Shown one piece after another: positions 21,344 to 37,237 of a DNA stretch of 44,444 nt. The stretch is taken from the NCBI GenBank assembly GCA_041686025.1, contig JAWLEP010000001.1:1-44444 (forward strand), written 5' to 3'. The translations under genes and the position numbers were made by a program. The notes beneath the pieces were generated by a model. That model did no database searches and had not been told where the DNA came from. It saw nothing but the letters and a program-made list of their open reading frames with translations. This stretch comes from Candidatus Fermentibacteraceae bacterium. GTDB taxonomy: Bacteria > Fermentibacterota > Fermentibacteria > Fermentibacterales > JCC-6. Within the stretch, counting starts at the first letter, position 1, and each line of letters opens with the position of its first letter.

Positions 21344-21463
21344 GGTGCGCCTTCCCGGATCTGGGGCCCTGTCAACGGCTGGAATATAAGGCCGGTCCCT
21401 TCGGTGAAAACCCGCAGATGAACGGTATGGACGGCCGTCGCGGACGTCTCGGCCCGGACAATG

Positions 21464-21516
21464 CCATACGAACCCGAGCGGACAAATGGGAGATATGCCC
21501 ACTCGGACTCGTATGG
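21464..21516 (-). repeat. 24-bp imperfect inverted repeat (hairpin favoured on minus strand)
   Basis: Arms 21464-21487 and 21493-21516 match at 19/24; four of five mismatches become G-U pairs on the minus strand. Confidence 0.7.
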
Positions 21517-21609
21517 AATTACATGTGCCATAGTGCCTTGTAAGATCGGGTGGCCGCGGCCTCCGGCGAAGGCGTTTCCATATCAGCTCAATCGCCCCGG
21601 GGAAGGGGG

Positions 21610-21639
21610 TTGACGCCAGCGTCTCCCATGCCATCTAAT
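21610..21639 (+). promoter_or_regulatory. Candidate promoter of hydrogenase operon
   Basis: TTGACG (21610-21615) - 18 nt - TCTAAT (21634-21639), just upstream of the structured leader. Confidence 0.45.
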
Positions 21640-21656
21640 TCAGCCATTGAGCCAGG

Positions 21657-21737
21657 GCCCGTCGGTTGCAAGAGGCCGCCAGTGCCGGAGCCGACGGGCG
21701 ACACGAGCCGCTAATGGGAGGGATTATGCTCGGCTCC
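21657..21737 (+). ncRNA. Riboswitch-like cis-regulatory leader (candidate Na+-I/DUF1646-like aptamer with alternative pairing)
   Basis: Stem GCCCGTCGG/CCGACGGGC enclosing TTG...AGTGCCG; GGAGCCGA (21687-21694) can instead pair with TCGGCTCC (21730-21737); class assignment is from memory only. Confidence 0.45.
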
Positions 21738-21886
21738 AACCTGCTGCACCGACACTTGCCACGGCTTCCCCGGTGCCTTCAGACCGAGTACTGTTTTTCG
21801 GCGGGACCCGCCTGATCCGCTAGTCCGCTGTCTTCTCTTCCTGCGGCAAGAGACCGGCTGGGTGGCAAGCCGGAAGGGCGCTGCAT

Positions 21887-22936
21887 TTGGAACGCAGGGG
21901 CCTGCTGGATGAAAAGGGGCTTACAGCCCTGCTGGAGGTTCTGACCAGGGAGTACCGGGTTGTGGCTCCGGTTCCCCTGGAAGGTGGTGCCTACGGTCTA
22001 GCCCCGCTCTCCGAAGCGGATCCGTCCAAGGTAGACCTGGCCGGAGTACGTCCCTACCAGCCCATGAAGTCCTTCTTCCTCAAACCCCGTCAGCGGGTTG
22101 CATACGACTACCAGACCCGCGTGCCGCAGGCCGACGGGAAGCCCTTCTGCCTCCTGGGAGCAAAGGCCTGCGACCTCGAGGGAATGGCCGTGCAGGACGC
22201 GGTCTTCCTCGAGGGCGAGTTCCGCGACCCGTTCTACGGGGCGGCCCGGGAGCGCAACCTGGTGATCACCTCCGACTGCGGCTTTGCCGCCGACACCTGC
22301 TTCTGTACCGCCATGGGGGGCGCGCCCTACGCGGAGAAGGGATTCGACCTGAACATCACCGTCCTGCCCGGCAGCTGGCTGCTGGAGGCCGGCTCGTCGG
22401 CCGGGGAGAGCCTCATGGACCGGCTGGGAGAGCACGTACGGCCGGCGGACGAGGAGTCCCTGGATATACGCCGGCACCAGAGGGACCGGGTCAGCGCCGA
22501 GGTCCGCAAGGGTGTTGACGAGTCCGGCGTCCCCGACACCGGCAGGCTGGACGGCGTGATCATGAAGGCCTACGAGAGCCCGGTCTGGAAGGACGAGGCC
22601 GACCGGTGCGTCGAGTGCGGCGCCTGCAACACCGTCTGCCCCACCTGTCACTGCTTCCTCCTCTACGACCAGATGCTCCAGGCCGGGGAGGAGATGGAGA
22701 AGCTGCGGGTCTGGGACTCCTGCCTGCTGAAGGGCTTCGCCCGGGTAGCCGGGGGGGAGAATCCCCGTCCCGAGCTGTGGATGAGGCTGCGCAACAGGTT
22801 CGAGAAGAAGTTCGACTTCTTCCCGAGGACCGAGGACATATACGCTTGCACGGGATGCGGAAGGTGCATCGCGGCCTGCCCGGCCGAGATCGACATCCGC
22901 GAGGTACTCCGAAGGCTGGTGGAAGATGCGCGATAG
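21887..22936 (+). CDS. 4Fe-4S protein, sulfhydrogenase beta (HydB)/AsrA-like
   Basis: GAKACDL, CFCTAMG, CVECGACNTVCPTCHCF, R.WDSC, GGENPR, CTGCGRCIAACP. Confidence 0.9.
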   Translation: MERRGLLDEKGLTALLEVLTREYRVVAPVPLEGGAYGLAPLSEADPSKVDLAGVRPYQPMKSFFLKPRQRVAYDYQTRVPQADGKPFCLLGAKACDLEGMAVQDAVFLEGEFRDPFYGAARERNLVITSDCGFAADTCFCTAMGGAPYAEKGFDLNITVLPGSWLLEAGSSAGESLMDRLGEHVRPADEESLDIRRHQRDRVSAEVRKGVDESGVPDTGRLDGVIMKAYESPVWKDEADRCVECGACNTVCPTCHCFLLYDQMLQAGEEMEKLRVWDSCLLKGFARVAGGENPRPELWMRLRNRFEKKFDFFPRTEDIYACTGCGRCIAACPAEIDIREVLRRLVEDAR

Positions 22937-23747
22937 GAACCCCTACGGACTTGTGGAGGCGGAGGTGGAGGAGATGGTCCGGGAGACCCCCACCATCTCC
23001 ACCGTGCGGATGCGCCCCCGGGAGGCGATACCGTTCGAGCCCGGGCAGTTCATCCAGCTCACCGTACCCGGGGAGGGGGAGGCGCCCTTCACTCCCTCAT
23101 CCCACTACGCCAAGACCGATCTGATGGACGTGAGCGTGATGAAGGTGGGCCGGGTCACCGAGCGTATCCACGCCCTGCAGCCGGGAGACAAGGTGGGCCT
23201 GCGCGGTCCCTTCGGAAGCGGATACCCGCTGGAGGACTTCAAGGGCCACGAGGTCCTGGTGGTGGGCGGCGGCTGCGGGTTCGCACCGCTGAGGGCGCTG
23301 ATGTACGGCCTCTTCGACATAGTCGACGACCTCGAGCAGCTAACCTTCCGGGGAGGCTGCCGGACCCCCGGCGAGCTGGTCTTCCACGACGAGATGGAGG
23401 ACTGGAAGGACCGCGACGACCTCAACCTCCGGCTGACGGTGGACCGGGGCGACGAATCCTGGAAGGGCAACGTGGGGGTGGTGACCACCATCCTCGACGA
23501 CGTGGAGATGGACTTTCCCGACGCCATCGGAGTTGTGTGCGGTCCTCCCATCATGATGAAGTTCGCCACCATGAAGCTGCTGGAGATGGGATTCGCCGAC
23601 GAGCACATCTACCTGTCCATGGAGAAGAACATGTCCTGCGCGGTGGGCATGTGCGGTCACTGCAGGCTGGGCCCCTACTACTGCTGCACGGACGGCCCGG
23701 TCTTCCAGTACAGCCGGATCAAGGGGCTATCGGGGATATGGGACTAG
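22926..23747 (+). CDS. FAD/NAD(P)-binding 2Fe-2S subunit, sulfhydrogenase gamma (HydG)/AsrB-like
   Basis: PGQF, GEAPFT, RGPFG, GGGCGFAPLR, CGPPIMM, MSCAVGMCGHC...CTDGPVF. Confidence 0.92.
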   Translation: MRDRNPYGLVEAEVEEMVRETPTISTVRMRPREAIPFEPGQFIQLTVPGEGEAPFTPSSHYAKTDLMDVSVMKVGRVTERIHALQPGDKVGLRGPFGSGYPLEDFKGHEVLVVGGGCGFAPLRALMYGLFDIVDDLEQLTFRGGCRTPGELVFHDEMEDWKDRDDLNLRLTVDRGDESWKGNVGVVTTILDDVEMDFPDAIGVVCGPPIMMKFATMKLLEMGFADEHIYLSMEKNMSCAVGMCGHCRLGPYYCCTDGPVFQYSRIKGLSGIWD

Positions 23748-23749
23748 GC

Positions 23750-24313
23750 ATGGAGAGAGCGACGAACAGCGCCGAGCAGCTGCACCACGGCCGGCTGGAG
23801 ACCGAGCCCCCGGCCGGCCCCGACATGAGGCTCTACATCGACCTCGACATCTGCTCGGAGAAGTGCGGCGAGTGCGAGATAAGCTGCAGCTACTTCTACC
23901 ATCCGGAGAACAACGGGATAATCTCGGTGGCCGAGCTGGCCACCTACGCCCTGGTGTGCAGGCGGTGCGACGACCCCCACTGCGTGGCGGCGTGCCCGAA
24001 GGACGCCCTGGAGCAGCAGGAGGACCTCGACGACATGCTGGTCCGGCACTCCATGCGCTGCATATCCTGCCGGTCCTGCTCCCACGCCTGTCCCTACGGC
24101 ACCATCTATCCCGAGCTGGTCCCCCAGCTGGCCCACGTCTGCGACTACTGCCTTGACCGCAGGGAGGACCAGGGCGAGCCGCTGTGCATAGCCACCTGCC
24201 CGTACGACGCGCTGAAGCTGATGCCGGGCGATGCGGAGCTGGATGAGAACACGTTCCTCGTGGGCGGAAACCTGATAGTGCACTCCACGCACTGGGACAG
24301 GGAGAAGGCATGA
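23750..24313 (+). CDS. Multi-4Fe-4S ferredoxin-like subunit (HydN/CooF/DmsB-like)
   Basis: C..KCGECEISC, CRRCDDPHCVAACP, CISCRSCSHACPYG, CDYC...PLCIATCP. Confidence 0.85.
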   Translation: MERATNSAEQLHHGRLETEPPAGPDMRLYIDLDICSEKCGECEISCSYFYHPENNGIISVAELATYALVCRRCDDPHCVAACPKDALEQQEDLDDMLVRHSMRCISCRSCSHACPYGTIYPELVPQLAHVCDYCLDRREDQGEPLCIATCPYDALKLMPGDAELDENTFLVGGNLIVHSTHWDREKA

Positions 24314-25236
24314 TCGAGGCTTACTACCTAATTGCGCTGGGCTTCGGCGCCACCGCTGCCCTGGGCCTGGCCGCCAGCTGGATAGACCGCAAGGTCACGG
24401 CCAGGCTGCAGTACAGGGTGGGGCCTCCGCTGCTGCAGCCCCTCACCGACCTGGTGAAGCTGATGGGAAAGGAGACAACGGTACCCTCCACCGCCACCCG
24501 CCCGGTCTTCTTCGCCGCGCCCCTGACGGGGCTGTCGGCGGTGATGGTGGCCTCGGCGGTCGTATGGGCGGCAAACGCCAACGCCCAGTCCGGGTTCGTG
24601 GGCGACTGGATCGTGCTGATATACCTGCTGGTGATGCCGTCGCTGGCCATGATCGCCGCCGGCTTCGCTTCCGGCAATCCGGTGGCCAGCCTGGGAGCCT
24701 CCCGGGAGATGAAGCTGGTCCTCTCCTACGAGCTGCCCTTCGTCCTCGCGCTGCTGGTTCCGGTCATCCACCACCCCGACAATGCCATACGGCTGGGGGC
24801 GCTGGTGGAGATGCAGAGGGCCTCGGGAGCGGTGGCCGGCAGCCTGTCCGGCCTGCTGGCCCTGCTGGTGGTCATCCTGGTCACCCAGGCCAAGCTGGCC
24901 CTGGTACCCTTCGACATTCCCGAAGCGGAGACCGAGCTGGCCGAGGGCCCTCTGATCGAGTACTCCGGTCCTCTGCTGGGCACGTTCCGCCTGATGAGGA
25001 ACATGATGCTCTTCCTTCTGCCCTTCGTGGCCGTCACCCTGTACTGGGGGGGAGCCAGCCTCAGCGGCTGGGGCTTCCTCTGGGCCTTCCTCAAGGTGGT
25101 GGCCCTGGTTGCGGTTACAACTGTCATACGAAACACGAACCCCCGCGTTCGAATAGACCAGGCGATGCGGTTCTTCTGGGGCCCGGTTACGGTGCTGGCA
25201 GCGGCCTCGGTGGTTCTCGCCCTGGCGGGCGCATGA
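24310..25236 (+). CDS. Hydrogenase membrane anchor subunit (NuoH/HycD/MbhM-like)
   Basis: DRKVTARLQYRVGPPLLQP..D..KL..KE, GASRE, PFDIPEAETEL.EG..IEYSG, PRVRIDQ. Confidence 0.93.
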   Translation: MIEAYYLIALGFGATAALGLAASWIDRKVTARLQYRVGPPLLQPLTDLVKLMGKETTVPSTATRPVFFAAPLTGLSAVMVASAVVWAANANAQSGFVGDWIVLIYLLVMPSLAMIAAGFASGNPVASLGASREMKLVLSYELPFVLALLVPVIHHPDNAIRLGALVEMQRASGAVAGSLSGLLALLVVILVTQAKLALVPFDIPEAETELAEGPLIEYSGPLLGTFRLMRNMMLFLLPFVAVTLYWGGASLSGWGFLWAFLKVVALVAVTTVIRNTNPRVRIDQAMRFFWGPVTVLAAASVVLALAGA

Positions 25237-25258
25237 TGGAAACGGAGGTGGCCGGCTG

Positions 25259-25690
25259 ATGGGGCTCAAGCTTAAGGCGCTTCTGAAATCGCCCTGGGTT
25301 TTCCACCTCTCCACCGGCAGCTGCAACAACTGCGACATCGAGGTTCTGGACTGCCTTACGCCCAGGTTCGACATCGAGCGTTTCGGAATGCTGCTGAAGG
25401 GCAGCATCCGCCACGCCGACGTCCTTCTGGTCACCGGCTCCTGCAACCGGATGTCGGCCGAGAGGCTGAAGACCCTCTACGAGCAGGTTCCCAAGCCCTG
25501 CCTGGTGGTGGCCATAGGGGAGTGCGCGCTCTCCCGGGGGATGTTCATCCACAGCTACAACTGTCCGGTCCCGCTGGACCACATCATTCCGGTGGACGTC
25601 TACATACCCGGCTGCCCGCCGAAGCCGGAGGCGGTAATCGCGGGCGTTGTCAAGCTGATAGAGAAGGTTGGAGGCAAGAAAGGTGACTGA
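25259..25690 (+). CDS. Group 4 [NiFe]-hydrogenase small subunit (NuoB/HycG/MbhJ-like)
   Basis: GSCNNCDIE (CxxC, hydrogenase type), RHADVLLVTG, AIGECA, PVDVYIPGCPPKPEA. Confidence 0.94.
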   Translation: MGLKLKALLKSPWVFHLSTGSCNNCDIEVLDCLTPRFDIERFGMLLKGSIRHADVLLVTGSCNRMSAERLKTLYEQVPKPCLVVAIGECALSRGMFIHSYNCPVPLDHIIPVDVYIPGCPPKPEAVIAGVVKLIEKVGGKKGD

Positions 25691-26159
25691 CCGGGCCGCT
25701 GTACTTCGGGATATCACCGAGAGGTTCTCCGGCGATATCCAGCGACTGGACGACGTCTCCCACAAGCGGGTCTACATCGACATCGAGACCGGCGCGCTGG
25801 TGAAGATGGCGCTCTACCTGTTCAGGCAGGTGGGGGCCCGGTTCAACATCGCTTCCGGGGTGGACTGCCGCAGCCACATCGAGATCCTCTACCACTTCAC
25901 CCTGGAGGACATCAACCTGATGATCTCGCTGCGGGTCAGGCTGGACCGCGAGAAGCCGGTGGTGGACTCGCTGACCCCCTACATCAAGGCCACCGACTGG
26001 ATCGAGCGGGAGATGAACGAGCTGCTGGGCATAGAGTTCACGGGCCATCCCGACATGAGGCGCCTGCTGCTGGCCGATGTCTGGCCCAAGGGCGTCTACC
26101 CGCTCCGGGCGGACTACGAGGAGTGGGACGACAGCGCCGTGCGGGACAGGGGGGTGTGA
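25683..26159 (+). CDS. NuoC/MbhK-like subunit
   Basis: SGVD, EILYHF, WIEREMNELLGIEF.GHPD.RRLLL...WP...YPLR. Confidence 0.92.
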   Translation: MTDRAAVLRDITERFSGDIQRLDDVSHKRVYIDIETGALVKMALYLFRQVGARFNIASGVDCRSHIEILYHFTLEDINLMISLRVRLDREKPVVDSLTPYIKATDWIEREMNELLGIEFTGHPDMRRLLLADVWPKGVYPLRADYEEWDDSAVRDRGV

Positions 26160-27346
26160 TGGGCAAGAGGACTACCATACCGATAGGGCCGTTCCATCCC
26201 CTGCAGGAGGAGCCGGAGTTCTTTACCCTCACCGTGGAGGGCGAGCGGGTGGTGGACATCGACGTCCGGATAGGCTGGAACCACCGGGGCATCGAGAAGC
26301 TCTCCGAGCGCAAGAACTTCGACCAGAGCACCTTCGTCATCGAGCGGATCTGCGGCATCTGCTCCACGAGCCATCCCTTCGCCTACACCATGGCGGTGGA
26401 GGACGTGATGCAGCTGGAGGTACCCGACCGGGCCAAGTACATCCGCACCATCATCGCCGAGGGGGAGAGGATCCACTCCCACCTGCTGTGGGCCGGCCTG
26501 GCGGGCCACTTCCTGGGCTACAACACGGTCTTCATGTGGGTCTGGAAAGCCCGCGAGGAGATACTGGACGTGATGGAGATGCTCTCGGGCAACCGCAACA
26601 ACTACGCAATGTTCAAGCCCGGGGGCGTCCGCCGCGACATAGACGCCGACGTGATAAAGCCCTGTCTGGCCAAGCTGGACAGGATCGAGGCCACCCTGGA
26701 CCTGGTCCGCAAGGCTGTAGAGGACGACCCGGTCCTGCAGGCCAGGACCAAGGGCGTGGGGGTGCTCACCCTGCAGGACGTCATCGACTACAGCGCCCTG
26801 GGGCCCACCTCGAGGGCCTCGGGACTGGCCCGGGACGTCCGCAAGGACAGTCCCTACGCCGCATACCCCATGCTTGACTGGCAGATGATCACCACCGAGA
26901 ACGGCGACGTCTACGACAAGGTGATCCTCCGGGTGCTGGAGCTGTACGAGTCGATCTCCATCCTCAGGCAGGCCCTTCCCAACCTGCCCGGCGGGGAGAT
27001 AGACGCCAACATCAAGTCGGTGCCTCCCGGGGAGGGCGTGGGTCACGCCGAGGCTCCCCGGGGAGAGGTATTCCACTACGTGCGCAGCGACGGGACCAAC
27101 CGGCCGGTGCGCCACAAGGTCCGGGCCCCCACCTTCATGAACCTGCCCACCTACCGGGAGTCGGTGGTGGGGGAGACCATCGCCGACGCCACCATAATCC
27201 TGGCCGCCATAGACCCCTGCTACTGCTGCACCGAGAGGGTGGCGGTGGTGGACGGCCGGGGCCGCAGGCTCCACGACGGAACCGACCTCGTGGAGATGTC
27301 CCGGGCCAAGACCGAGCGGCTGAGAAGGGAGATGGGAGGGGCATGA
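26159..27346 (+). CDS. Group 4 [NiFe]-hydrogenase large (catalytic) subunit
   Basis: IGPFHP..EEP, HRGIEK, L1 ERICGICS..H, EAPRGE, R.PT..N, L2 DPCYCCTER followed by a ~35 aa cleavable tail. Confidence 0.95.
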   Translation: MGKRTTIPIGPFHPLQEEPEFFTLTVEGERVVDIDVRIGWNHRGIEKLSERKNFDQSTFVIERICGICSTSHPFAYTMAVEDVMQLEVPDRAKYIRTIIAEGERIHSHLLWAGLAGHFLGYNTVFMWVWKAREEILDVMEMLSGNRNNYAMFKPGGVRRDIDADVIKPCLAKLDRIEATLDLVRKAVEDDPVLQARTKGVGVLTLQDVIDYSALGPTSRASGLARDVRKDSPYAAYPMLDWQMITTENGDVYDKVILRVLELYESISILRQALPNLPGGEIDANIKSVPPGEGVGHAEAPRGEVFHYVRSDGTNRPVRHKVRAPTFMNLPTYRESVVGETIADATIILAAIDPCYCCTERVAVVDGRGRRLHDGTDLVEMSRAKTERLRREMGGA

Positions 27347-29001
27347 ATCTCGCAGAGCTCATGAGACTGGACACGCTCGCCATCTTCTGCGCCGCCTTCA
27401 GCGGGCTCTTCTTCCTCCTGACAACCCTGTACTCCACCGGCTTCATGAAGGGCATGAGGTCGGGCTTCCGCTACTACCTCTACCTGCTGGTCACCCTGGT
27501 GGCCACCGCAGCGGCCCTCTTCGCGGACAACGTCATACTGCTGCTGGCCCTGTGGGGGTTCCTGGGTCTGATGCTCTATCTGCTGATAGGCTTCGGCCGG
27601 GCGGCGCGGACGGCGGACACAGCCAAGAAGACCATGATAATCATCGGGGGCTCGGACGCCCTCATGCTCATGGGCCTGGGACTGGTCTGGCATCTAAGCG
27701 GCACGGATGCCCCGATATGGGCCATGCGGCTCTCCGAGCTGCGCATCCCCATAGAGGGCGGGGCCAGCACCCTGGCCTTCCTGCTGCTGGCCGCCGGCGC
27801 CCTGGCCAAGGCCGGCGCCATGCCTCTGCACACCTGGATACCGGATACGGCGGAGGACGCCCCCATACCGGTGACCGCCTACCTGCCGGCCTCCCTGGAC
27901 AAGCTGCTTGGCATCTACCTGCTGGCCAGGCTCTGCCTGGAGGTATTCGTAATGAGCCCGGCGATGAACACCGTCCTGATGGCGGTGGGCAGCTTCACCA
28001 TAGTGGCCGCGGTTATGATGGCTCTGGTGCAGCACGACCTGCGGAGGCTGCTGGGCTACCACGCGGTGAGCCAGGTTGGCTACATGGTCCTGGGCATCGG
28101 CACGGGCACCATGGTGGGGATCGCCGGAGGTCTGTTCCACATGCTGAACCACGCCATCTACAAGGCCTGCCTGTTCTACACGGGAGGCGCCGTGGTGAAG
28201 AGGGCGGGAACCGCCGACCTCAGGAAGCTGGGGGGCTACGCAAAGGTGATGCCCGTGGTGTTCACCAGCTTCCTGGTGGCCGCCCTGGCCATCTCCGGCG
28301 TACCACCCCTCAACGGTTTCGCCTCCAAGTGGATGGTCTACCAGGGCGTGATCGAGACCGGAGCGGACGGAGGCTTCATGTGGGTGGTGTGGCTGGCCGC
28401 AGCCATGATAGGCAGCGCCCTCACACTGGCCAGCTTCATGAAGCTCTCCAACGCGGTCTTCCTCGGCCAGCCGTCGAAGCCCCTGGAGAAGCGGGGCAGC
28501 GGTGCCTGGGCCGGCATACCGGCGGTGACCCTGGCGGCCCTCTGCCTGGGGTTCGGCGTTCTGGCCCAGAGGCTGCCGCTGCGCTACCTGATATTCCCCT
28601 CCATCGGCGCCGAGCCCGGCGGCCAGGGCATCTGGCAGCCGGGAATGGCCTCGGTCCTCCTGCTGGGAGGCCTGCTGGTCGGCCTGATTCTCTACCTGAT
28701 CGGAAAGGCCTGGAAGGGCGCGCGGGTGAGCAAGCCCTTCGTGGGCGGAGTCGACCTGGAGGACCACCCCGACATGAGGGTCTCCGGGGCCGACTTCTAC
28801 CTCACGGTCAGCGAGATGGGCCCGCTGAAGAGGATGTACGCGCTGGCCGAGGCCAGGGCGTTCGACATCTACGAGCAGGGAAAGCAGCTGGTGTTCGAGC
28901 TGAGCGGGGCCCTGGGCGCGGCGCACAGCGGCGTCCTCTCCCGGTACCTGGGCTGGTACCTGCTCGGCATGGCGGCGATTCTAGCTGTACTGGTGTGGTG
29001 A
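27343..29001 (+). CDS. Antiporter-like membrane subunit (NuoL/MrpA/HyfB-like)
   Basis: AKAGAMPLHTWIP, LGYHAVSQVGYM, HMLNHAIYKACLF, SGVPPLNGFASKW, C-terminal HSG.L..YL. Confidence 0.9.
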   Translation: MNLAELMRLDTLAIFCAAFSGLFFLLTTLYSTGFMKGMRSGFRYYLYLLVTLVATAAALFADNVILLLALWGFLGLMLYLLIGFGRAARTADTAKKTMIIIGGSDALMLMGLGLVWHLSGTDAPIWAMRLSELRIPIEGGASTLAFLLLAAGALAKAGAMPLHTWIPDTAEDAPIPVTAYLPASLDKLLGIYLLARLCLEVFVMSPAMNTVLMAVGSFTIVAAVMMALVQHDLRRLLGYHAVSQVGYMVLGIGTGTMVGIAGGLFHMLNHAIYKACLFYTGGAVVKRAGTADLRKLGGYAKVMPVVFTSFLVAALAISGVPPLNGFASKWMVYQGVIETGADGGFMWVVWLAAAMIGSALTLASFMKLSNAVFLGQPSKPLEKRGSGAWAGIPAVTLAALCLGFGVLAQRLPLRYLIFPSIGAEPGGQGIWQPGMASVLLLGGLLVGLILYLIGKAWKGARVSKPFVGGVDLEDHPDMRVSGADFYLTVSEMGPLKRMYALAEARAFDIYEQGKQLVFELSGALGAAHSGVLSRYLGWYLLGMAAILAVLVW

Positions 29002-29005
29002 TGAG

Positions 29006-29536
29006 ATGATTGCTCTGTACATACTGCTTTCGATGATGATACTCGGAGCTCTGGTGGCCATCGAGGTTCGCAGCCTGATCTCCTCGGTGGTGGCGGTGGG
29101 GGCGGTGGGCCTGGGGCTCTCCCTGGTCTTCCTGCTGCTGAAGGCCCCGGACGTGGCCCTCACCCAGCTGGTGGTGGAGATCATCGCCGTGATCATACTG
29201 ATCAGGGCCACCATCCGCCGCAGGCTCCCCGAGTCACCGGTGTCCGCAAGGCCCTACGGGGTCCTTCTGGGCCTGGGGTTCGCCGTCCTGCTGGTTATGG
29301 TCTCCCTGCCGGCGCTGCAGGAGATCCCCCGGCTGGGACACCCCTACATGAGGGTGGCCGGGACCTACGTGGAGAGCGGCCTGCAGGATACCGGGGCCGC
29401 CAACCTTGTGGCCTCGGTGATACTGGACTACAGGGCCTACGATACCCTGGGAGAGGCCACTGTGCTCTTCACGGCCGTGATGGGAGTCATGGCCGTGCTC
29501 CGAAACAGGGGCCTCAAGAGCGGGGAGGAGGGCTGA
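29006..29536 (+). CDS. MbhD/MbhE-like (MrpA C-terminal part) subunit
   Basis: LKAPDVALTQLVVE; GAANLVASVILDYRAYDTLGEATVLF. Confidence 0.9.
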   Translation: MIALYILLSMMILGALVAIEVRSLISSVVAVGAVGLGLSLVFLLLKAPDVALTQLVVEIIAVIILIRATIRRRLPESPVSARPYGVLLGLGFAVLLVMVSLPALQEIPRLGHPYMRVAGTYVESGLQDTGAANLVASVILDYRAYDTLGEATVLFTAVMGVMAVLRNRGLKSGEEG

Positions 29537-29537
29537 C

Positions 29538-30002
29538 ATGGCCGACAGGCCCGAAGACGGAATGTCGCTCATAGTCAAGACCGTCACCAGGCTCACCCTG
29601 GGCCTGATCCTCCTCTACGGCCTCTACATCGTCCTGCACGGCCACCTTACGCCGGGAGGCGGCTTCGCCGGCGGCGTCATCGTGGCCCTCTCGCTGGTGC
29701 ACCTGGTGCTTGCCTTCGGCGGCCGGAGCGCCTGGAAGAGGATCTCCCATTCGGGCGCCTCCCGCATGGAGGCCACCGGAGCCCTGGGATTCCTGGCCCT
29801 GGCCCTGCTGGGTCTCACCGCCGGGTTCTTCCTCTCCAACTTCCTCCCCGAAGGCAGAGCTTTCGAGCTGTTCAGCGCCGGGTCGATACCCCTGGCCAAC
29901 CTGGCCATATGCCTCAAGGTGGGGGGCGGCCTGTTCGCCGTTTTCGCCATACTGACCATCTTCACCGCCGAGACCACCTCGCCGGACGGGGGGGAGCGAT
30001 GA
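29538..30002 (+). CDS. mnhB: MnhB/MrpB (MbhF-like) subunit
   Basis: YIVLHGHLTPGGGFAGG, SAG.IP..N..I.LKV. Confidence 0.9.
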   Translation: MADRPEDGMSLIVKTVTRLTLGLILLYGLYIVLHGHLTPGGGFAGGVIVALSLVHLVLAFGGRSAWKRISHSGASRMEATGALGFLALALLGLTAGFFLSNFLPEGRAFELFSAGSIPLANLAICLKVGGGLFAVFAILTIFTAETTSPDGGER

Positions 30003-30340
30003 CGGCCTACATACTCTGCCTGATCCTTTTCGGCCTCGGCATCTACTGCGCGGTCTCCAAGCGCAACCTGATAAAGATCATCGTCGGCGTGGCCATAGCC
30101 GAGTACGCCGTGAACCTGATGTTCGTCCTGGTTGGATACAGGATGGGAGGAGTGCCCCCCATCTTCGCAGCTCCCGGGGAGGCGCAGGGCGCGATGGTCG
30201 ACCCGCTGCCCCATGCCCTGGTGCTGACCTCGATCGTGATAGGTCTGGCCACCACGGCCCTGCTGGCGGCGATAGCCATGAGGATATACCGCAAGTACGG
30301 AACCTACGATGTCAACGAGATAAGGGAGCTGAGAGGGTGA
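29999..30340 (+). CDS. mnhC: MnhC/MrpC (MbhG-like) subunit
   Basis: KRNLIKII, AVNL, MVDPLPHALVLTSIVIG, YGT. Confidence 0.92.
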   Translation: MTAYILCLILFGLGIYCAVSKRNLIKIIVGVAIAEYAVNLMFVLVGYRMGGVPPIFAAPGEAQGAMVDPLPHALVLTSIVIGLATTALLAAIAMRIYRKYGTYDVNEIRELRG

Positions 30341-31851
30341 CACACACGCTGATGCCCCTGATGATCGCGGTGCCCCTCGGAGGCGCCTTCCTGTGCGCGC
30401 TAATGGGAAAGCGAGCCAGGGCACTGCCTGACGCCATGGGATTCCTGGTGACCCTTCTCGCCGCGGCGGGAGCGGTGTACTCGGTGAGCCTCGTGAAGTC
30501 CGCGGGTCCCCTGGTCTACTCAATGGGAGGCTGGAGGGCTCCCGTGGGAATAGTGCTCTCCCTCGACGGCCTCACCTCCCTGATGCTGGTCACCGTCAAC
30601 CTGGTGGCCTTCCTGGTGGCCGTATACGCCAGAGGGTACATGGAGCGCTACACGTCCAAGAGGCTGTTCTACGGCCTCTTCCTGCTGATGCTGGCGGGGA
30701 TGAACGGAGTGGTCCTCACCGGCGATATGTTCAACCTGTTCGTATTCCTGGAGATCGCATCGGTGGCCAGCTACGCCCTGGTGGCCTTCGGCACCGGGAA
30801 GCACGAGCTGGAGGCCGCCTTCAAGTACGGCGTGATGGGAACCATCGCCTCGCTGTTCATACTGCTGGGCATCATCCTGCTCTACGCCCGCACGTCCACT
30901 CTCAACATGGCCGACATGGCCGCGCAGCTTGCCGACGGAGGGGGAGACGTGGTCCCGCTGGTCACCGGCCTGTTCCTGGCCGGATTCGGCCTGAAGGCGG
31001 CGCTGGTTCCCTTCCACGCCTGGCTTCCCGACGCCCATCCGTCGGCTCCCGCTCCCATCAGCGCCATGCTCTCGGGCGTCCTCATCAAGTCCCTGGGCGT
31101 CTACGCGCTGGTGCGGGTCCTGTACAATGTCCTGGGGGTGGCCAAAGTAACCGAAGATGGTTCACCTTTCACTCCGCTGATCGTTCTGGGCATACTGTCC
31201 ATGATGGTGGGCGTGGTGCTGGCCCTGGGCCAGTGGGACATGAAGAGGCTGCTGGCCTACCACTCCATCAGCCAGATAGGATACGTGATCCTGGCAATAG
31301 GAATAGGCACCCCGCTGGCGGTGATGGCGGGTCTGTTCCACCTGTTCAACCACTCCATCTTCAAGTCACTTCTGTTCCTCGACTCGGGCGCCCTGGAGCA
31401 CGCCACCGGCACCCGGGACCTCAGGAGGATGGCGGGGGTGGGCAGGAAGCTGCCGGTGACCTCTTCCACCACCCTGATCGCTTCGATGTCCATCGCCGGC
31501 ATACCGCCCTTCAACGGATTCTGGAGCAAGCTGCTGATCATCGTGGCGGCGGTGCAGGCCGGCCACTCCTGGAGCGCCTTCTGGGCGGTGCTGGCCAGCA
31601 TCCTCACACTGGCCTCCTTCACCAAGGTGCTGCGCTACGGGTTCCAGGGAGGCGCAAGCGAGCGGCTGCGCCAGCTGGCGGCGGTCCCGCTGTCCATGAA
31701 GGTTGCCCTGGTGCTCTTCGCCGTGATCTGCATCGGCGGGGGCCTGCTTCTGCTGCCCTCGCTGCGTGATCTCTTCCTCGGCCCCGCCGCCGACGCTCTG
31801 GCCGGCGGTACCGAGCAGCTGGGCTTCGTCCTGACGGGGGGTGCGTCATGA
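30337..31851 (+). CDS. mnhD: MnhD/MrpD (MbhH-like) antiporter subunit
   Basis: GGW..PVGI.L.LDGL, TGDMFNLFVFLEI, KAALVPFHAWLPDAHPSAP, KRLLAYHSISQ, NH..FKSLLF, GIPPFNGFWSK. Confidence 0.93.
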   Translation: MTHTLMPLMIAVPLGGAFLCALMGKRARALPDAMGFLVTLLAAAGAVYSVSLVKSAGPLVYSMGGWRAPVGIVLSLDGLTSLMLVTVNLVAFLVAVYARGYMERYTSKRLFYGLFLLMLAGMNGVVLTGDMFNLFVFLEIASVASYALVAFGTGKHELEAAFKYGVMGTIASLFILLGIILLYARTSTLNMADMAAQLADGGGDVVPLVTGLFLAGFGLKAALVPFHAWLPDAHPSAPAPISAMLSGVLIKSLGVYALVRVLYNVLGVAKVTEDGSPFTPLIVLGILSMMVGVVLALGQWDMKRLLAYHSISQIGYVILAIGIGTPLAVMAGLFHLFNHSIFKSLLFLDSGALEHATGTRDLRRMAGVGRKLPVTSSTTLIASMSIAGIPPFNGFWSKLLIIVAAVQAGHSWSAFWAVLASILTLASFTKVLRYGFQGGASERLRQLAAVPLSMKVALVLFAVICIGGGLLLLPSLRDLFLGPAADALAGGTEQLGFVLTGGAS

Positions 31852-32360
31852 GGAGCAGGATAGCCATGTTCCTGGTGGCCCTGGCCGCCTGGTGCATTCT
31901 CAGCTGGTCGGTGAGCCCCCAGCACCTGGCGGTGGGAGTGGTGGTCTCGCTGATCGTGGCGGTCTCCGTGGGGGACCTGTTCGTCAGCCGGCCCCACATG
32001 ATGACGCATCCGCTGCGCTGGCTTAACCTGATCTTCGTCTACGCGCCGCTGCTGGCCTGGGAGTGCGTGAAGGCCAACTTCGACGTGGCCTACAGGGTGC
32101 TCAACCCCGCGCTTCCGGTGAAGCCGGGAATAGTGCGCATCAGGACCTCGCTGCGGTCGGACACCGGTCTGACCTTCCTGGCCAACTCCATAACGCTTAC
32201 GCCGGGGACCATGACGGTGGACGTGGACGCCGACGAGGGGATCCTCTACATCCACTGGATCAACGTCAGCAGCGATGACCCCGCCGAACGGGCCAGTCGC
32301 ATAGCCGGGAGGTTCGAGCCCGTTCTGAGAAGGATCTTCGAGGAAGGGGGTGGAGAATGA
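31848..32360 (+). CDS. mnhE: MnhE/MrpE (MbhA-like) subunit
   Basis: KANFDVAYRVL.P, PGIV, LANSITLTPGT.TVDV, LYIHWI. Confidence 0.93.
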   Translation: MRSRIAMFLVALAAWCILSWSVSPQHLAVGVVVSLIVAVSVGDLFVSRPHMMTHPLRWLNLIFVYAPLLAWECVKANFDVAYRVLNPALPVKPGIVRIRTSLRSDTGLTFLANSITLTPGTMTVDVDADEGILYIHWINVSSDDPAERASRIAGRFEPVLRRIFEEGGGE

Positions 32361-32725
32361 GAGCAGCCAGATGGGCCCTGGGAGGAGTCGTTCTGCTGGC
32401 GGTGCTGGCCCTGATAGTATTCAGGACCTACCCGGTGGAGTTCCTGGAGAACGTAAGCGACTCCGGTTTCGCGGCCCGCGCTCTCTACATCGTGCTCCTG
32501 TCCGCCCTCCTCTGTCTCTTCCGAATCGCCAGGGGCCCCACCTCGGCGGACCGGATCATGGCCATAGACATACTGGGCATACTGATAGTGGGCTTCTGCG
32601 CCATAATGGCGGCCGTGACCGATACCGGCTGGTACCTGGACATAGGGATCGCCTGGGCGCTGCAGAGCTTCATCGCATCTCTGGCATTCTCCAAGTACCT
32701 GGAGAGGAGGCGGTTCGATGCTTAG
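32357..32725 (+). CDS. mnhF: MnhF/MrpF (MbhB-like) subunit
   Basis: RIARGPTSADRIMAID, YLDI, SFI.SLAFSKYLE. Confidence 0.9.
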   Translation: MRAARWALGGVVLLAVLALIVFRTYPVEFLENVSDSGFAARALYIVLLSALLCLFRIARGPTSADRIMAIDILGILIVGFCAIMAAVTDTGWYLDIGIAWALQSFIASLAFSKYLERRRFDA

Positions 32726-33080
32726 CATCCTCGGCAAGGTGCTCATCGGCGTCGGCCTGGGGTTCGACCTGCTGGGCTGCCTCGGCCTGGTCCGCCTGCC
32801 GGATGTCTACAACAGGCTCCAGGCTGCTACGAAGTGCGTCACCCTGGGCACCTGCAGCATTCTGCTGGGGGTGTTCTTCTACAGCGGCATGATCACCGGA
32901 ACCGGCATCAAGGCGCTGCTGTGCATCCTCTTCCTGGTGCTTACGGCCCCGGTGGCCGCCCACGCCATCTCCAAGGGCGCCCACAACGGCGGCCTTCGCA
33001 TGTGGAAGGGCTCCGTCACCGACGAGTACCTGGAGGACACGGGCAAGGGTGAGGGAGAAGGGGAGGGGGCGGCAACATGA
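32718..33080 (+). CDS. mnhG: MnhG/MrpG (MbhC-like) subunit
   Basis: GLVRLPDVYNRLQAATKCVTLG, LTAPVAAHAI. Confidence 0.93.
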   Translation: MLSILGKVLIGVGLGFDLLGCLGLVRLPDVYNRLQAATKCVTLGTCSILLGVFFYSGMITGTGIKALLCILFLVLTAPVAAHAISKGAHNGGLRMWKGSVTDEYLEDTGKGEGEGEGAAT

Positions 33081-33700
33081 GACTCCCCAAGGTAAGAGAG
33101 CTGGTGGAGGCCATAAGGGCCATCTTCGTGGGCCCCTACACCTCCCCGTTCCCCAAAGAGATGCCGCAGCCCCACCGCAACTTCCGGGGCCAGCCCGAGT
33201 TCGACCCCGAGAAGTGCGTGGGCTGTCTGGGCTGCGAGGAGATATGCCCCGTGGGGGCCATCGACCACCGCGACGAGCTCGACCGCGAGGACGGCACCCC
33301 CATGCGGGTGATGATACACTACACCGACACCTGCATCTTCTGCGGGGAGTGCGAGGCCGCCTGCATCAACGACCACCAGGGCATCGTTCTCACAGATCAG
33401 TGGGAGCTGTCGTTCTTCGACCGCGCAGAGGCCTACGAGACCATCGAGAAGGAGCTGGTGCTCTGCGAGTGCTGCGGCGAGCCGGTGGCCTGCCGCGACC
33501 ACCTGATCTGGATATCCGACCGGCTGGCCGAGCTCACCTTCTCCAACCCCACCCTCTACCTGACGAAGATGAGGGAGCTGGGAGTGGCCGACGAGAACCT
33601 GGTGAGGACGGCCATGGAGGGCTGGAGGCCCGACCGGATGAAGGTGCTCTGCGCCCGCTGCCGCCGCCAGACCACCCTCACCACGGCGGAGGACTCCTGA
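33077..33700 (+). CDS. NuoI/HycF/MbhN-like 2x[4Fe-4S] subunit
   Basis: GPYT..FP, FRG.P, CVGCLGCEEICP, CIFCGECEAAC, extra CECCG and CARCRR. Confidence 0.9.
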   Translation: MRLPKVRELVEAIRAIFVGPYTSPFPKEMPQPHRNFRGQPEFDPEKCVGCLGCEEICPVGAIDHRDELDREDGTPMRVMIHYTDTCIFCGECEAACINDHQGIVLTDQWELSFFDRAEAYETIEKELVLCECCGEPVACRDHLIWISDRLAELTFSNPTLYLTKMRELGVADENLVRTAMEGWRPDRMKVLCARCRRQTTLTTAEDS

Positions 33701-34200
33701 CCCAGGGGTCCGCCGCGGAAGAGAGACCCCTCGTAGAGGGACTGCGGGAGCTGGCGAGGGCCGGCTCCCGCGTCGTCCTTCTGGGGGTGGGGAACGCCCT
33801 GCGGGGCGATGACGGATTCGGGCCGGCTCTGGCCGGAAGGCTCGCCGGCCGCACCCGCGCAGTATGCATCGATGCCGGAACCACCCCCGAGAACCAGACC
33901 GCCCCCGTCCTGCGCGCCCGGCCGGACGCCGTGATCGTAGCGGACGCCGCCGACTTCGGCGGTGAGCCCGGGGATCTGTCGCTGATCGAGGCCGGCAGAA
34001 TCTCCGAATGCGGCGGCGCCATCACCCACTCCATGTCCCTGAAGCTGCTGGCCGACTACCTCACCGGGGAGACGGGGGCCCGGATAGCCCTGCTGGCCGT
34101 GCAGCCTGCGGACACCCGGTTCGGCAGGCCTCTGTGTGAACGGGTCTCGCAGGCCCTGGATGCTGCCGAGAGTGCTATTCTGGAGGCTCTGGAAGGCTAG
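33697..34200 (+). CDS. hycI: Hydrogenase maturation protease (HycI-like); probable CTG start
   Basis: VLLGVGNALRGDDGFG, IDAGTTPEN, DAADFGGEPG, THSMSL, AVQP. Confidence 0.9.
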   Translation: MTQGSAAEERPLVEGLRELARAGSRVVLLGVGNALRGDDGFGPALAGRLAGRTRAVCIDAGTTPENQTAPVLRARPDAVIVADAADFGGEPGDLSLIEAGRISECGGAITHSMSLKLLADYLTGETGARIALLAVQPADTRFGRPLCERVSQALDAAESAILEALEG

Positions 34201-35357
34201 AGGGCGCCCTCTGTGGTAAGGGGGAGCTCCAGGGTGAAGGTGCTGCCCTCCCCCGGCCGGCTGTCCACCCTGGCGTCCCCGCCGTGGACGTCCGCCGCCC
34301 TCTTCACAATGGACAGGCCCAGGCCGCTGCCCCTGGATTTGCCCGCGGAGGCCCGAATCCTCACGAACTCCTCGAAGAGCCGGTCCTGGTCCTCGGGGCT
34401 GATCCCGGGGCCGTTGTCCTCCACCTGGACCAGCACGCTTCCGTCCCCGCTTCTGGCCCGGACCTCGATCCGTCCGCCCTCGGGCGTGTACTTTATGGCG
34501 TTGGCCAGCAGGTTGCCCACCGCCTCCCGCACCAGGAACGCGATGCCCTGTATGGAGGGGAGGTGGGGGGGGACGTTCAGCTCCACCTTCTGGTCCTTCA
34601 TGGCGGACCGGTCGGACAGCTCCTCCACCACCTTCTCCAGTATCGCTCCCACGTCCACGGTCTTGATGCTGGAGCGCAGGTCCTCGGAGGAGTCCAGCAT
34701 GGCCAGCACCTGGAAGTCGTGGAGGAAGGAGCTCACCTCCCCCAGCCTGTCCCGGAGCCTTTCCAGGAGATGGACCTGCTGCTTGGTGAGCGGCTTGTCC
34801 ATCACCGACTCCAGGCCGTAGACAAGTGAGATGGAGGTGTTCACCGGCGAGCGCAGGTCGTGCACTGCGATCTTGAGGAAGTCCCTCTGCAGCGAGGAGA
34901 GGCTTCTAAGCTGCCGGTTGGCCTCCGCCGCCTTCCGCTCGGCGTCCCTCAACCTCTCACGGGTCCTGGAGATGGACCTGCCCATCTCCCCTGCGGCCAG
35001 GCCCACCAGCAGCACGGCCCCGGCCCGGCCGATGTCCACGTAGAGGTCGGTGGTCACGGCTCCGGAGAGGTGGAGAAGGGCGGTCTCCAGGATCTTTACG
35101 ATGGCGATTACCATGACTCCTCGCCCCCACCATATGGCGGCTATCAGTATGGGGATGTAGAGGAGGTGCGAGTATATGGAGCTCAGCCCGAGGACGAAGC
35201 GGAAGATGTATACCAGCGCCCCGTAGGCCAGGAGCATGCCCAGCAGCACCAGGGCCCTGAATACGTCCCTGGAATCGGCGGTCTGAGTGCGCGGCGTATC
35301 GCCGATGGTTCCCCTCCGGGGTTTGCGGTCGGGCAGGCTGCCCCGCAGCGGCTGCAT
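34197..35357 (-). CDS. Membrane-bound sensor histidine kinase (start uncertain)
   Basis: N-terminal TMs (YSHLLYIPILIAAIWWG), AVHDLRSP, NLLANAIKYT, DNGPGI, GSGLGLSI. Confidence 0.9.
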   Translation of the reverse strand: MQPLRGSLPDRKPRRGTIGDTPRTQTADSRDVFRALVLLGMLLAYGALVYIFRFVLGLSSIYSHLLYIPILIAAIWWGRGVMVIAIVKILETALLHLSGAVTTDLYVDIGRAGAVLLVGLAAGEMGRSISRTRERLRDAERKAAEANRQLRSLSSLQRDFLKIAVHDLRSPVNTSISLVYGLESVMDKPLTKQQVHLLERLRDRLGEVSSFLHDFQVLAMLDSSEDLRSSIKTVDVGAILEKVVEELSDRSAMKDQKVELNVPPHLPSIQGIAFLVREAVGNLLANAIKYTPEGGRIEVRARSGDGSVLVQVEDNGPGISPEDQDRLFEEFVRIRASAGKSRGSGLGLSIVKRAADVHGGDARVDSRPGEGSTFTLELPLTTEGAL

Positions 35358-35427
35358 ACCCTGAGAACACCCATGATCAGCCTAAAGAATAGGCAACGGG
35401 GATTGCCTCGGCAATGGCCTCCGGCGG

Positions 35428-36090
35428 TCAGCCCTCCGCCAGCCGGACCACCAGCACGCCGTCTCCCATGGGCAGCATCACCGGCTGCAGGCCGGGGTCT
35501 GCGTAGACCGAATCCACCAGCCCCGCCACCGCAGCCGGCGCTCCGGGAGGAGGCTCTCGCAGAAGGGCCCTTCCGCCCATGAAGGCGTTGTCCAGGGCCA
35601 CGACCCCCCCGGGACGGACCAGCCTGCGGCAGAGGGCGAAGTAATCGGGATAGCCGGACTTGTCGGCGTCGATGAAGGCCATGTCGAAGCCGCCCTCGTT
35701 TCCCTCGGCCACCAGCTCCTGCAGTGTCCGGGACGCCGGCCCCAGCCGCAGCTCGATCCGGCCGTCGAGGCCGGCCCTCCTCCAGTACTCCCCGGCCGTC
35801 TCCGTCCACTCCCGGGAGACGTCGCAGGCCACCAGCCTGCCGTCGGGGGGGAGGGCGCGGGCCATGCATGTGGAGCTGTAGCCGGTGAATACCCCCACCT
35901 CCAGCACCGACCTGGCCCCGATGAGCCCCGCCAGAAGAGCCAGCAGCTGCCCCTGCTGCGGGGATACCTGCATCCTGGACTCCGGCAGCTCCGAGGTCCT
36001 GCGGCGGAGGTCGGCCAGCAGCCCGTCCTCCCTCCTCAGCGCCAGCCCGCGCATGAGATCCTGCAGCGTGTCCCGTGACGGTCTACCCAT
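35428..36090 (-). CDS. SAM-dependent O-methyltransferase (caffeoyl-CoA OMT / Methyltransf_3)
   Basis: MQVSPQQGQLL, VLEVGVFTGYS, FDMAFIDADK..Y, LDN, LPMGDG. Confidence 0.93.
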   Translation of the reverse strand: MGRPSRDTLQDLMRGLALRREDGLLADLRRRTSELPESRMQVSPQQGQLLALLAGLIGARSVLEVGVFTGYSSTCMARALPPDGRLVACDVSREWTETAGEYWRRAGLDGRIELRLGPASRTLQELVAEGNEGGFDMAFIDADKSGYPDYFALCRRLVRPGGVVALDNAFMGGRALLREPPPGAPAAVAGLVDSVYADPGLQPVMLPMGDGVLVVRLAEG

Positions 36091-37075
36091 CGGCCTCCCC
36101 CTCTTCCTCTGTTCCGGGCCCGCCGTACGGGCTTCCGTAGAGCTCTCTCAGGCAGTCCGGGCAAAGACTATGGCTGAACTCCGCCATGGAGTGCTGCCGC
36201 AGAAAGACCTCCAGCTGCTCCCAGTAACCGGAATCGTCACGTATCTTCTTGCAGTGTGAGCAGATGGGTACGATTCCCCTCAGGGTCCGTATCTTATCCA
36301 GAGCGGAGCTGAGATCTTCGATCAGCCTCTCCCGCTCCAGTTCCGCCCGCTTCCGCTCTGTTATCTCCAGGTGGGTCCCCAGGGCCCTGACCGGATTACC
36401 CTCTTCGTCCCTCTCGACTATTCGGCCCCAATTCAGTATCCACCGCCAGCTGCCGTCCCTGGCCCTCAGCCTGTGCTCCACCTCGAACGAGTCCGTCTCC
36501 CCCCTCTCGTGCCGGGCCGCCTCCTCCCTGACCGCGTCCAGGTCGTCGGGGTGCACCAGACCGAGCCAGACGTCCTTCTGGGGGGGCAGCTCCTCCGGCC
36601 CGTAGCCGAGCATGGTCGCCCAGCTTTCGCTCCTTTCGACCCTTCCGGTGGTGAAGTCCTCCTCCCACCACGCCAGCCGGCTGCTCTCCAGCACCGCCTG
36701 CAGCCGCTCCCGGTACCTCGAGAGCTGCGCGTAGAGAACCCGGTCGGGCGGGTCGCATTCCATGACGGCCACCGCTCCGGAGACCACCCCCGAAGGGTCG
36801 AGGAGCGGTCGGCAGATGAGGGTCCTGCGCTGGCCGTCCTCGAGTGCGATGGACCTGCTGCAGGGACGGCCGGTGCGGAGCGCCTCGCGGACGGGGCATC
36901 CCGGGCAGACGGGAGGGCGGGCGCAGTCGATGAGGGAGCACTCGCTGCATCCGAGGCCGCAGGGCACAGCTGTCGCCGGGGGCAGGCGGGTGTAGGAAAC
37001 GGGTTCGCCGTAGCGGTCGAAGACCACGGCGTCCGGGGCGAGGCCCCCCTCCGCGACGGCGGTGGCCGGGTCCAT
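36083..37075 (-). CDS. PAS/PAC sensor protein with Cys/His-rich C-terminal domain
   Basis: PAS_3 (MLGY, VHPDD, EHRLR.RDGSWRWI..G), C-terminal PICSHCKKIRDDSGYW...HS..FSHSLCPDC; ATG 37075 after GGAAGGGG. Confidence 0.8.
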   Translation of the reverse strand: MDPATAVAEGGLAPDAVVFDRYGEPVSYTRLPPATAVPCGLGCSECSLIDCARPPVCPGCPVREALRTGRPCSRSIALEDGQRRTLICRPLLDPSGVVSGAVAVMECDPPDRVLYAQLSRYRERLQAVLESSRLAWWEEDFTTGRVERSESWATMLGYGPEELPPQKDVWLGLVHPDDLDAVREEAARHERGETDSFEVEHRLRARDGSWRWILNWGRIVERDEEGNPVRALGTHLEITERKRAELERERLIEDLSSALDKIRTLRGIVPICSHCKKIRDDSGYWEQLEVFLRQHSMAEFSHSLCPDCLRELYGSPYGGPGTEEEGEADG

Positions 37076-37237
37076 CGGAGTGTCCCCTTCCCGGGAGGTC
37101 AGATGGCGGCTGACACCAATGGCTGCAGAAGATAAACGACATGTGTCCGGCGTTGTCAAGGCCCGGCGGTCTTTGGGGCGGCGGCCGGCGCTTGTATCTT
37201 TCCGACCGATAAAGGCGCATGGAAGGAGACAGCCGAT

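Follow-up and report, generated by a model that had tools for sequence, protein, structure and literature searches.

A conserved, genus-restricted leader upstream of a Hun hydrogenase operon and its possible action as a translational gate

The window analysed here is a 44,444-nucleotide stretch of a Candidatus Fermentibacteraceae genome (G000), in which a long operon on the forward strand is preceded by a candidate structured leader. According to Pfam and NCBIfam, the operon products include AsrA/HydB-like and AsrB/HydG-like proteins and an Fe-S protein; NuoH-like, small, 30-kDa and large group-4 hydrogenase subunits; MrpA/D-, MbhD/E- and MnhB-G-like antiporter subunits; and a HycF-like Fe-S protein and a HycI-like protease. 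The large hydrogenase subunit carries CGIC and CYCC motifs, which are those reported for HunG (Glass et al., bioRxiv 10.1101/536078), and the AsrAB-like, group-4g hydrogenase and Mnh layout is likewise that of the Hun operon in the same source. Because the AsrAB-like module, the group-4 CGIC/CYCC large subunit and the Mnh module are all present, the operon is, by gene content, a Hun operon, and the placement of the leader ahead of a hydrogenase-Mrp operon in a preliminary description of this DNA is confirmed. The first gene, hunA, starts at TTG 21887 (UUG) behind the Shine-Dalgarno (SD) sequence GGAAGG at 21872-77. Three reverse-strand genes (34197-37684) run towards the operon end and encode a histidine-kinase-like ATPase, an O-methyltransferase and a PAS protein. 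The features of the locus are as follows, where G001 is a sister species, L048 and L049 are metagenome loci, and P1, H2 and H4 are predicted hairpins.

Other side of the intergenic stretch from the Hun operon, divergent: AIG2/GGACT-like gene
21610 to 21615, forward strand: inferred -35 element TTGACG, a word common to 22 orthologous operons, where it lies 34-37 nt before the start codon
21634 to 21639, forward strand: -10-like TCTAAT, inferred from lineage promoter geometry, 18 nt after TTGACG
21646 to 21738, forward strand: conserved 5' block and candidate sensor domain, 4 of 93 sites differing from G001
21657 to 21699, forward strand: P1, a stem of 11 bp plus an internal loop and, at 21674-86, a small inner hairpin, predicted in minimum-free-energy and centroid folds
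21664 to 21673, forward strand: GGTTG (21664-68) directly followed by CAAGA (21669-73), Na+-I words without an intervening stem-loop
21687 to 21737, forward strand: possible alternative 8-bp helix of 21687-94 with 21730-37, exclusive with P1 and H2
21705 to 21736, forward strand: predicted hairpin H2, with a GGGAGG SD in the loop and the AUG of an upstream open reading frame (uORF) in the 3' arm, invariant in G001 and L049
21726 to 21815, forward strand: 29-codon uORF from ATG 21726, open in three full sequences and drifting
21834 to 21841, forward strand: candidate anti-SD complementary to 21872-79 (8/8 in G001, L048 and L049; here 7 bp with one G-U)
21851 to 21889, forward strand: invariant 3' block with predicted hairpin H4, SD GGAAGG (21872-77) and the TTG start
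21887 to 22936, forward strand: hunA, first operon gene, AsrA/HydB-like Fe-S protein
21887 to 34200, forward strand: Hun operon, with an AsrA/B-like module, a group-4 [NiFe] hydrogenase, Mrp/Mnh subunits and a HycI-like protease

The -10 box proposed in the preliminary description corresponds to TCTAAT, which lies 18 nt after TTGACG; a consensus scan does not call this promoter. Positions 21610-17 carry no variant in G001, L049 or four DNA runs, and A21638G falls within the -10-like word in one haplotype. When the -35-to-start spacing of the lineage is applied here, transcription is predicted to start near 21646, and the -35 at 21610 is likely to drive synthesis of a 5' leader of 241 nt. In RNA-library contigs from two samples of one study, the 5'-most pieces start at 21729 (X6, with adapter before it) and 21727 (X7, with one piece reaching 22294), and 21646-21726 is uncovered; these are contigs only, DNA carry-over is possible, and they are given no weight here for or against any reading. 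Contigs from X17 start at 21852, and those from X18 do not cover the leader. The ends near 21726 could mean that transcripts start or are cut there, that a short structured fragment was lost, or that depth was low. A scan of the forward strand found no terminator-like site, and the T-run at 21794-98 varies between strains, which together argue against transcription attenuation.

The perfect 9-bp stem 21657-65/21691-99 reported earlier is present and, when one G-U and one U-A pair are added, reaches 11 bp. The inner CGGTTG...CAGTGCCG pairing said to lie inside this stem is impossible, because CGG 21663-65 already belongs to the outer stem; the inner pairing predicted instead is GGC(C)/GCC at 21674-86. 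By itself, the P1 hairpin has a fold z of -3.5 with boundaries picked by hand, and the whole leader has a z of +1.55, which is no better than shuffles. Stems of at least 9 Watson-Crick base-pairs within 50 nt occur in 12/300 dinucleotide shuffles of the leader, and stems of at least 11 bp including G-U pairs in 33/300. The sequence GGAGCCGA (21687-94) is fully complementary to TCGGCTCC (21730-37), and this helix is intact in all three full sequences (G000, G001 and L049). The claim of two mutually exclusive folds therefore stands as far as perfect pairing goes, but an 8-bp complement at any distance is found in 129/300 dinucleotide shuffles, so that the alternative pairing alone is at chance level, and it shows no compensatory change. 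In the isolated 5' domain, the alternative helix is predicted to be 10.8 kcal/mol less stable than P1 (the P1+H2 state). For the suggested switch between the two folds, the computations give no consistent change in access to either ribosome-binding site.

The hairpin described around a GGGAGGG SD is also present (21705-36), but its SD serves the uORF rather than hunA: GGGAGG precedes ATG 21726 and lies ~165 nt upstream of hunA. Codon changes in the uORF number six nonsynonymous and three synonymous in G001, and two and none in L049; by these counts the peptide drifts about neutrally. A longer frame of 58 codons from TTG 21647 was rejected, because L049 and three of the four runs carry a one-base insertion that disrupts it. 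Closer to hunA, hairpin H4 (21854-73) is predicted to present the loop GGGTGG, and the consensus fold contains P1, H2 and the hunA SD paired to 21834-41. The exact anti-SD 8-mer arises in 75/5000 shuffles and any 8-mer complement to 21868-83 in 456/5000. Within the anti-SD, positions 21837-41 carry no variant, in an otherwise variable region.

Compared with G001, the 5' block (21646-21738) differs at 4/93 positions, the 3' block (21851-89) at 0/39 and the middle at 19/112. Neutral yardsticks from the same comparison give 52/187 differences at fourfold-degenerate sites and 54/265 at upstream intergenic sites. When variable sites are pooled, the counts are 4/93 for the 5' block, 32/112 for the middle and 0/39 for the 3' block, which shows no difference in G001, L048 or L049 and no listed variant in the four runs. 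For the 5' block against fourfold sites, Fisher's test gives p of about 1e-6, an optimistic value, as are the p values in general, because the block edges were drawn by eye after the alignment had been viewed. Judged by these comparisons, the leader is under selection, with two blocks conserved far above neutral sites. The conservation in relatives that the preliminary description looked for is therefore found, but the accompanying covariation is not: compensatory changes affect 0 of 24 pairs in three near-identical sequences, a set with almost no power.

The conservation counts leave out a distant variant. It is represented by one 30-letter loose end, identical in DNA runs X8 and X14, with a depth of 5 in X8 and an assumed adjacency to 21683. 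This variant retains the 5' strand of P1 and GGTTGC, and adjoining bases change. It reads CTAGA, GAAGCC and AGCTGCC, and most of its middle region is no longer alignable.

Among 70 genomes of the phylum, BLAST and a covariance model (R1) find the leader only in G000 and G001. It also occurs in at least two of 80 metagenome loci (whole in L049, partial in L048) and in DNA runs of related strains. R1 was built from three near-identical sequences and so has a short reach; it matched its positive control and 0/95 other loci, and gave 0/121 and 0/26 in genomes of two other phyla, where it was run without a positive control. An exact-pattern scan of GTDB returned 16 stretches, of which one is the same as G001; 14 lie within open frames of at least 189 codons and one other has no stem, and they were therefore rejected as chance matches. 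As far as these searches reach, the leader appears to be restricted to one genus.

When 61 genomes, 47 of them from the 70 of this phylum, were searched at the protein level, 30 loci were recovered. Twenty-four close orthologues of hunA lie outside the genus, all with hunB and hunC behind them. In 22 of these, the word TTGAC stands 34-37 nt before the ATG, which implies a leaderless mRNA; the other two, G037 and G006, have other leaders. The 22 leaderless-looking operons (L005-L007 and L009-L027) read TTGAC(A/G), ~17 nt, a TAT-started hexamer usually without the last T, ~6 nt and ATG, and this promoter spacing shows no genome-wide excess in G000. In a quick tree that kept 51 of 54 loci (L049, L062 and L072 were dropped), the 22 leaderless loci form one clade with 98% SH-aLRT support and the leader-bearing loci fall outside it. 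An insertion of the leader at an ancestral leaderless start was rejected on this basis, since it is no more likely than the loss of a leader. In the tree, the sister lineage of this genus is G006, whose own leader spans 144 nt (L004:1339-1485), with several predicted stems and a hairpin just before the ATG. A homology of the two leaders, seen by eye, was rejected since its score is reached by 258/1000 shuffles.

The tentative identification of the leader as a Na+-I or Li+ riboswitch in the preliminary description is not upheld. At the gathering score, Rfam gives no match in the window, and at E up to 10 around the leader only two irrelevant weak matches appear; the DUF1646, nhaA-I and nhaA-II models that had been named for such a scan give none at the leader, nor any above their cut-offs in the genomes searched. 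For Na+-I (RF03071, cut-off 40.5 bits), the best score in the genome is 12.4 bits, elsewhere, and 0/70 phylum genomes exceed the cut-off, with a positive control in L. lactis. RF03057 (Li+-I/Na+-II, cut-off 37 bits) gives nothing at the locus in G000 or G001 at E<=10 with 150 of ~1100 candidates scored per genome, and nothing at the leader in a direct scan. RF03038 (Li+-II, cut-off 70.4 bits) gives nothing at the leader and no score over the cut-off, and its control set likewise holds no genome over the cut-off. Twenty Hun loci searched with Rfam yield 0 matches, and searches of 5, 26 and 151 genomes for true Na+-I instances for a custom model yield none over the cut-off.

Li+-I (nhaA-I, RF03057), Na+-II and Li+-II (nhaA-II, RF03038) riboswitches resemble the leader in preceding cation-transport genes, and translational control is proposed for most Li+ riboswitches (PMC9646797). 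The leader has, however, neither the GGGTG...CAGGTT...GGTCGGGCCGCC pattern seen in the Li+-I constructs nor that of the Na+-II construct in the same paper, and it also lacks the GGGUG...CAGGUU and GGYCGGGCCG loop words of RF03057. The leader is thus not a Na+-I, Na+-II, Li+-I or Li+-II riboswitch. Other known RNAs were also set aside: signal recognition particle (SRP) RNA is found elsewhere in the genome, 6S RNA is excluded as the leader has no stable rod fold, and a cold-seep-1 match reaches 24 bits against a cut-off of 126. A search for 6S RNA gave no match at E<=1 in G000, G001 or G006, and SRP RNA was found in all three. CsrA was not found in the 95%-complete genome. Outside motif-discovery supplements, the literature searched describes neither this leader nor any riboswitch controlling a Hun operon, and the words 'riboswitch' and 'Rex' do not occur in the main text of Glass et al. 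(10.1101/536078).

We tentatively propose, with a probability of roughly 0.45, that this genus-restricted conserved leader acts as a translational gate with a postulated effector. The 241-nt region would be transcribed from the -35 at 21610, and H4 together with the anti-SD would occlude the hunA SD and its UUG start. The effector, either a protein or a small ligand, would bind to the conserved 5' domain (P1 and H2) and so relieve the block on the hunA ribosome-binding site. In anti-SD translational attenuators, the SD is sequestered by an upstream complement for which an alternative partner is available. The leader shares with such attenuators in general the predicted sequestration and the alternative partner, but differs in that no ON state appears in the models.

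The predicted closed default state follows from the cost of opening the hunA SD, for which all constructs give values of 5.6-9.9 kcal/mol. Full-length models place the P1, alternative and long-range states within ~3 kcal/mol, and although G000, G001 and L049 are ~96% alike, they are not predicted to share one dominant fold. When P1 and H2 are forced, the unpairing of the hunA SD is 0.32, 0.04 and 0.58 in the three sequences, and no modelled state opens this SD consistently across them. The cost of opening is no lower when the 5' domain is deleted or the uORF is masked. A long-range pairing between the 5' strand of P1 and the SD block is not significant (201/2000 and 316/2000 shuffles; 207/5000 random genome 39-mers), and a search for a link between the conserved 5' and 3' blocks gave none that reached significance. 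GC-rich RNA is easily predicted to be occluded, which counts against the gate reading.

The conserved blocks might instead act mainly as DNA, with an internal promoter or operator giving a shorter transcript, from near 21681 by a sigma-54-like site or from ATG 21726, and with incidental hairpins; we regard this as unlikely. Sigma-54 promoters have a consensus with GG-N10-GC spacing. The genome encodes RpoN and has six strong enhancer-binding-protein matches, and 21655-70 is one of five genome sites with this spacing at the stringency used. Nevertheless, where sigma-54-like sites stand ahead of apparent gene starts in the genome they begin with TGGCA, which 21655-70 does not have, and the distant variant has TG in place of GG. 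Two one-sided C>U changes in P1 of G001 both leave G-U pairs on the forward strand, so that they break DNA symmetry and keep RNA pairing. For a start at 21726, a -35-like CCGACG lies 35 nt before the ATG, the modal spacing of the leaderless relatives, but no good -10 is found at the lineage spacing. Further upstream, a palindrome TATGG-N11-CCATA (21512-21532) that fits control at the DNA level is kept in G001 and L049 inside a variable intergenic region, and is possibly a regulator site for either divergent promoter.

The leader could also be a static structure that fixes a low rate of hunA initiation, or that serves as a protection or processing mark of the long operon mRNA. The hunA SD is predicted to be closed in all states, the two folds change the opening of the uORF site by less than 2 kcal/mol in no consistent direction, and the 144-nt structured leader of the sister lineage G006 is unrelated, all of which agree with a fixed role. 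Near-invariant predicted loop and junction bases over 93 nt nevertheless exceed what a stabilising hairpin needs, and we likewise consider this explanation improbable.

Alternatively, the leader might be a Na+-sensing riboswitch, that is, a rearranged or tandem Na+-I offshoot or a new class built from Na+-I-like parts (GGUUG, CAAGA and tandem GGG-x-GG hairpins), in which Na+ opens the hunA ribosome-binding site and turns on the hydrogenase-Mrp complex. In four published Na+-I constructs, a stem-loop of 11-21 nt separates GGTTG from CAAGA, and GGGTRR follows after a further 12-14 nt (PMC9337991); these spacings are those of the four constructs, and the natural range among 308 Na+-I RNAs may be wider. 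The GGTTG/AGTGCC core named in the preliminary description is thus right in its first word, but AGTGCC is in none of the four constructs. The leader resembles Na+-I in having GGTTG and CAAGA near the 5' end, G-rich GGG-x-GG loops (GGGAGG and GGGTGG) and Na+-related genes behind. The second hairpin, in a different register, follows another CAAGA (21847-51) by 8 nt, with no GGTTG nearby and so without a 5' half. The operon includes Mrp/Mnh subunits, and the K subunit of the host V-type ATPase reads TQGIY, HQG and VEFY, which by eye match the Na+-site residues Thr64, Gln65, Tyr68, Gln110 and Glu139 (PMC2359735); Na+ energetics is therefore plausible for the host. A loosened Na+-I pattern has eight matches in the 2.7-Mb genome, one of them the leader, and this rarity, although post hoc in that the pattern was loosened after the leader had been viewed, suggests itself as the best remaining argument for a Na+-I offshoot.

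Several observations oppose a Na+ sensor. Because GGTTG abuts CAAGA, with a 0-nt insert, the Na+-I P1 (UUG/CAA) cannot form, and GGUU is predicted to pair with AGCC rather than CAA. The spacer from CAAGA to the GGGAGG loop is 42 nt as against 12-14, GGGAGG is in another register, and the leader has neither the intrinsic terminator usual for Na+-I nor a covariance-model score. The strict Na+-I pattern has no match in the genome or in 477 kb of Hun loci. GGTTG (21664-68) is kept in G001, L049 and the distant variant, but the first CAAGA, present here, in G001 and in L049, becomes CTAGA in that variant (the 30-letter loose end of two runs), a change at one of the two adenosines altered in mutant M1 (A32U A33U), which abolished the Na+ response (PMC9337991). 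The second CAAGA reads AAAGA in L048, L049 and four DNA runs. No second copy of the leader was found in the genome, and hence none before other Na+ genes. We therefore give a Na+ sensor little credence; if it were real, it would be a riboswitch on an energy-converting group-4g hydrogenase and would mark Na+ as the Hun coupling ion.

Control by a leader peptide, in which translation of the 29-codon uORF senses a signal and governs hunA, is very improbable: the uORF has a strong SD and ATG, a predicted opening cost of ~3-5 kcal/mol as against 11-15 at hunA (SD to start), and a start and stop kept in the three full sequences, but its near-neutral drift in G001 comes with no conserved codon run, its stop lies 71 nt from the hunA start, masking it leaves the SD closed, and its SD-AUG spacing is only 4 nt.

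Whether or not it gates translation as proposed, the leader is a real but narrow orphan leader and no known cation riboswitch. As one of many such leaders, in a single uncultured genus and with neither covariation nor a known ligand, its value is moderate. The Hun complex occurs widely among uncultured sediment bacteria, and its controlling signal would point to the electron donor or the coupling ion. The 93-nt block is small enough for in vitro probing in one experiment.

Upstream of the Hun orthologues examined, at least four layouts occur: besides the present leader these are a Rex-like palindrome, a start without a leader, and a different conserved hairpin. The long leader of this genus sets it apart from the other lineages. 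The palindrome TTGTGR-N6-YCACAA, which we take to be a 'Rex box', precedes hunA in 22 of 87 dereplicated Hun regions (22 loci among L055-L124), as against 0.01 in shuffles. It is absent from 21345-21890 of the window, and this lineage may therefore use another control; the genome has two Rex-family matches.

In another Hun clade, a different, conserved hairpin directly follows a clear promoter, with CYGGAGGA pairing with TCYTCHAGA, and is followed by a second stem. Its positions are:

L050:2197-2250, hairpin of the other clade
L051:2392-2442, hairpin of the other clade
L053:2201-2251, hairpin of the other clade
L057:2238-2288, hairpin of the other clade

The same words oppose each other, in swapped order, atop P1 (CAAGA 21669-73 and CCGGAG 21685-90), and CHAGA varies between A and T in both cases. 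This word match is post hoc and has a chance of ~122/5000 shuffles; the CCGGAG/CAAGA words common to both hairpins could represent a shared binding motif. In L107, ~250 nt before hunA, a hairpin is followed by CAAGA and GGGTGG, and this pattern occurs in 4 of 87 Hun regions as against 0.29 expected, two of the four belonging to this genus.
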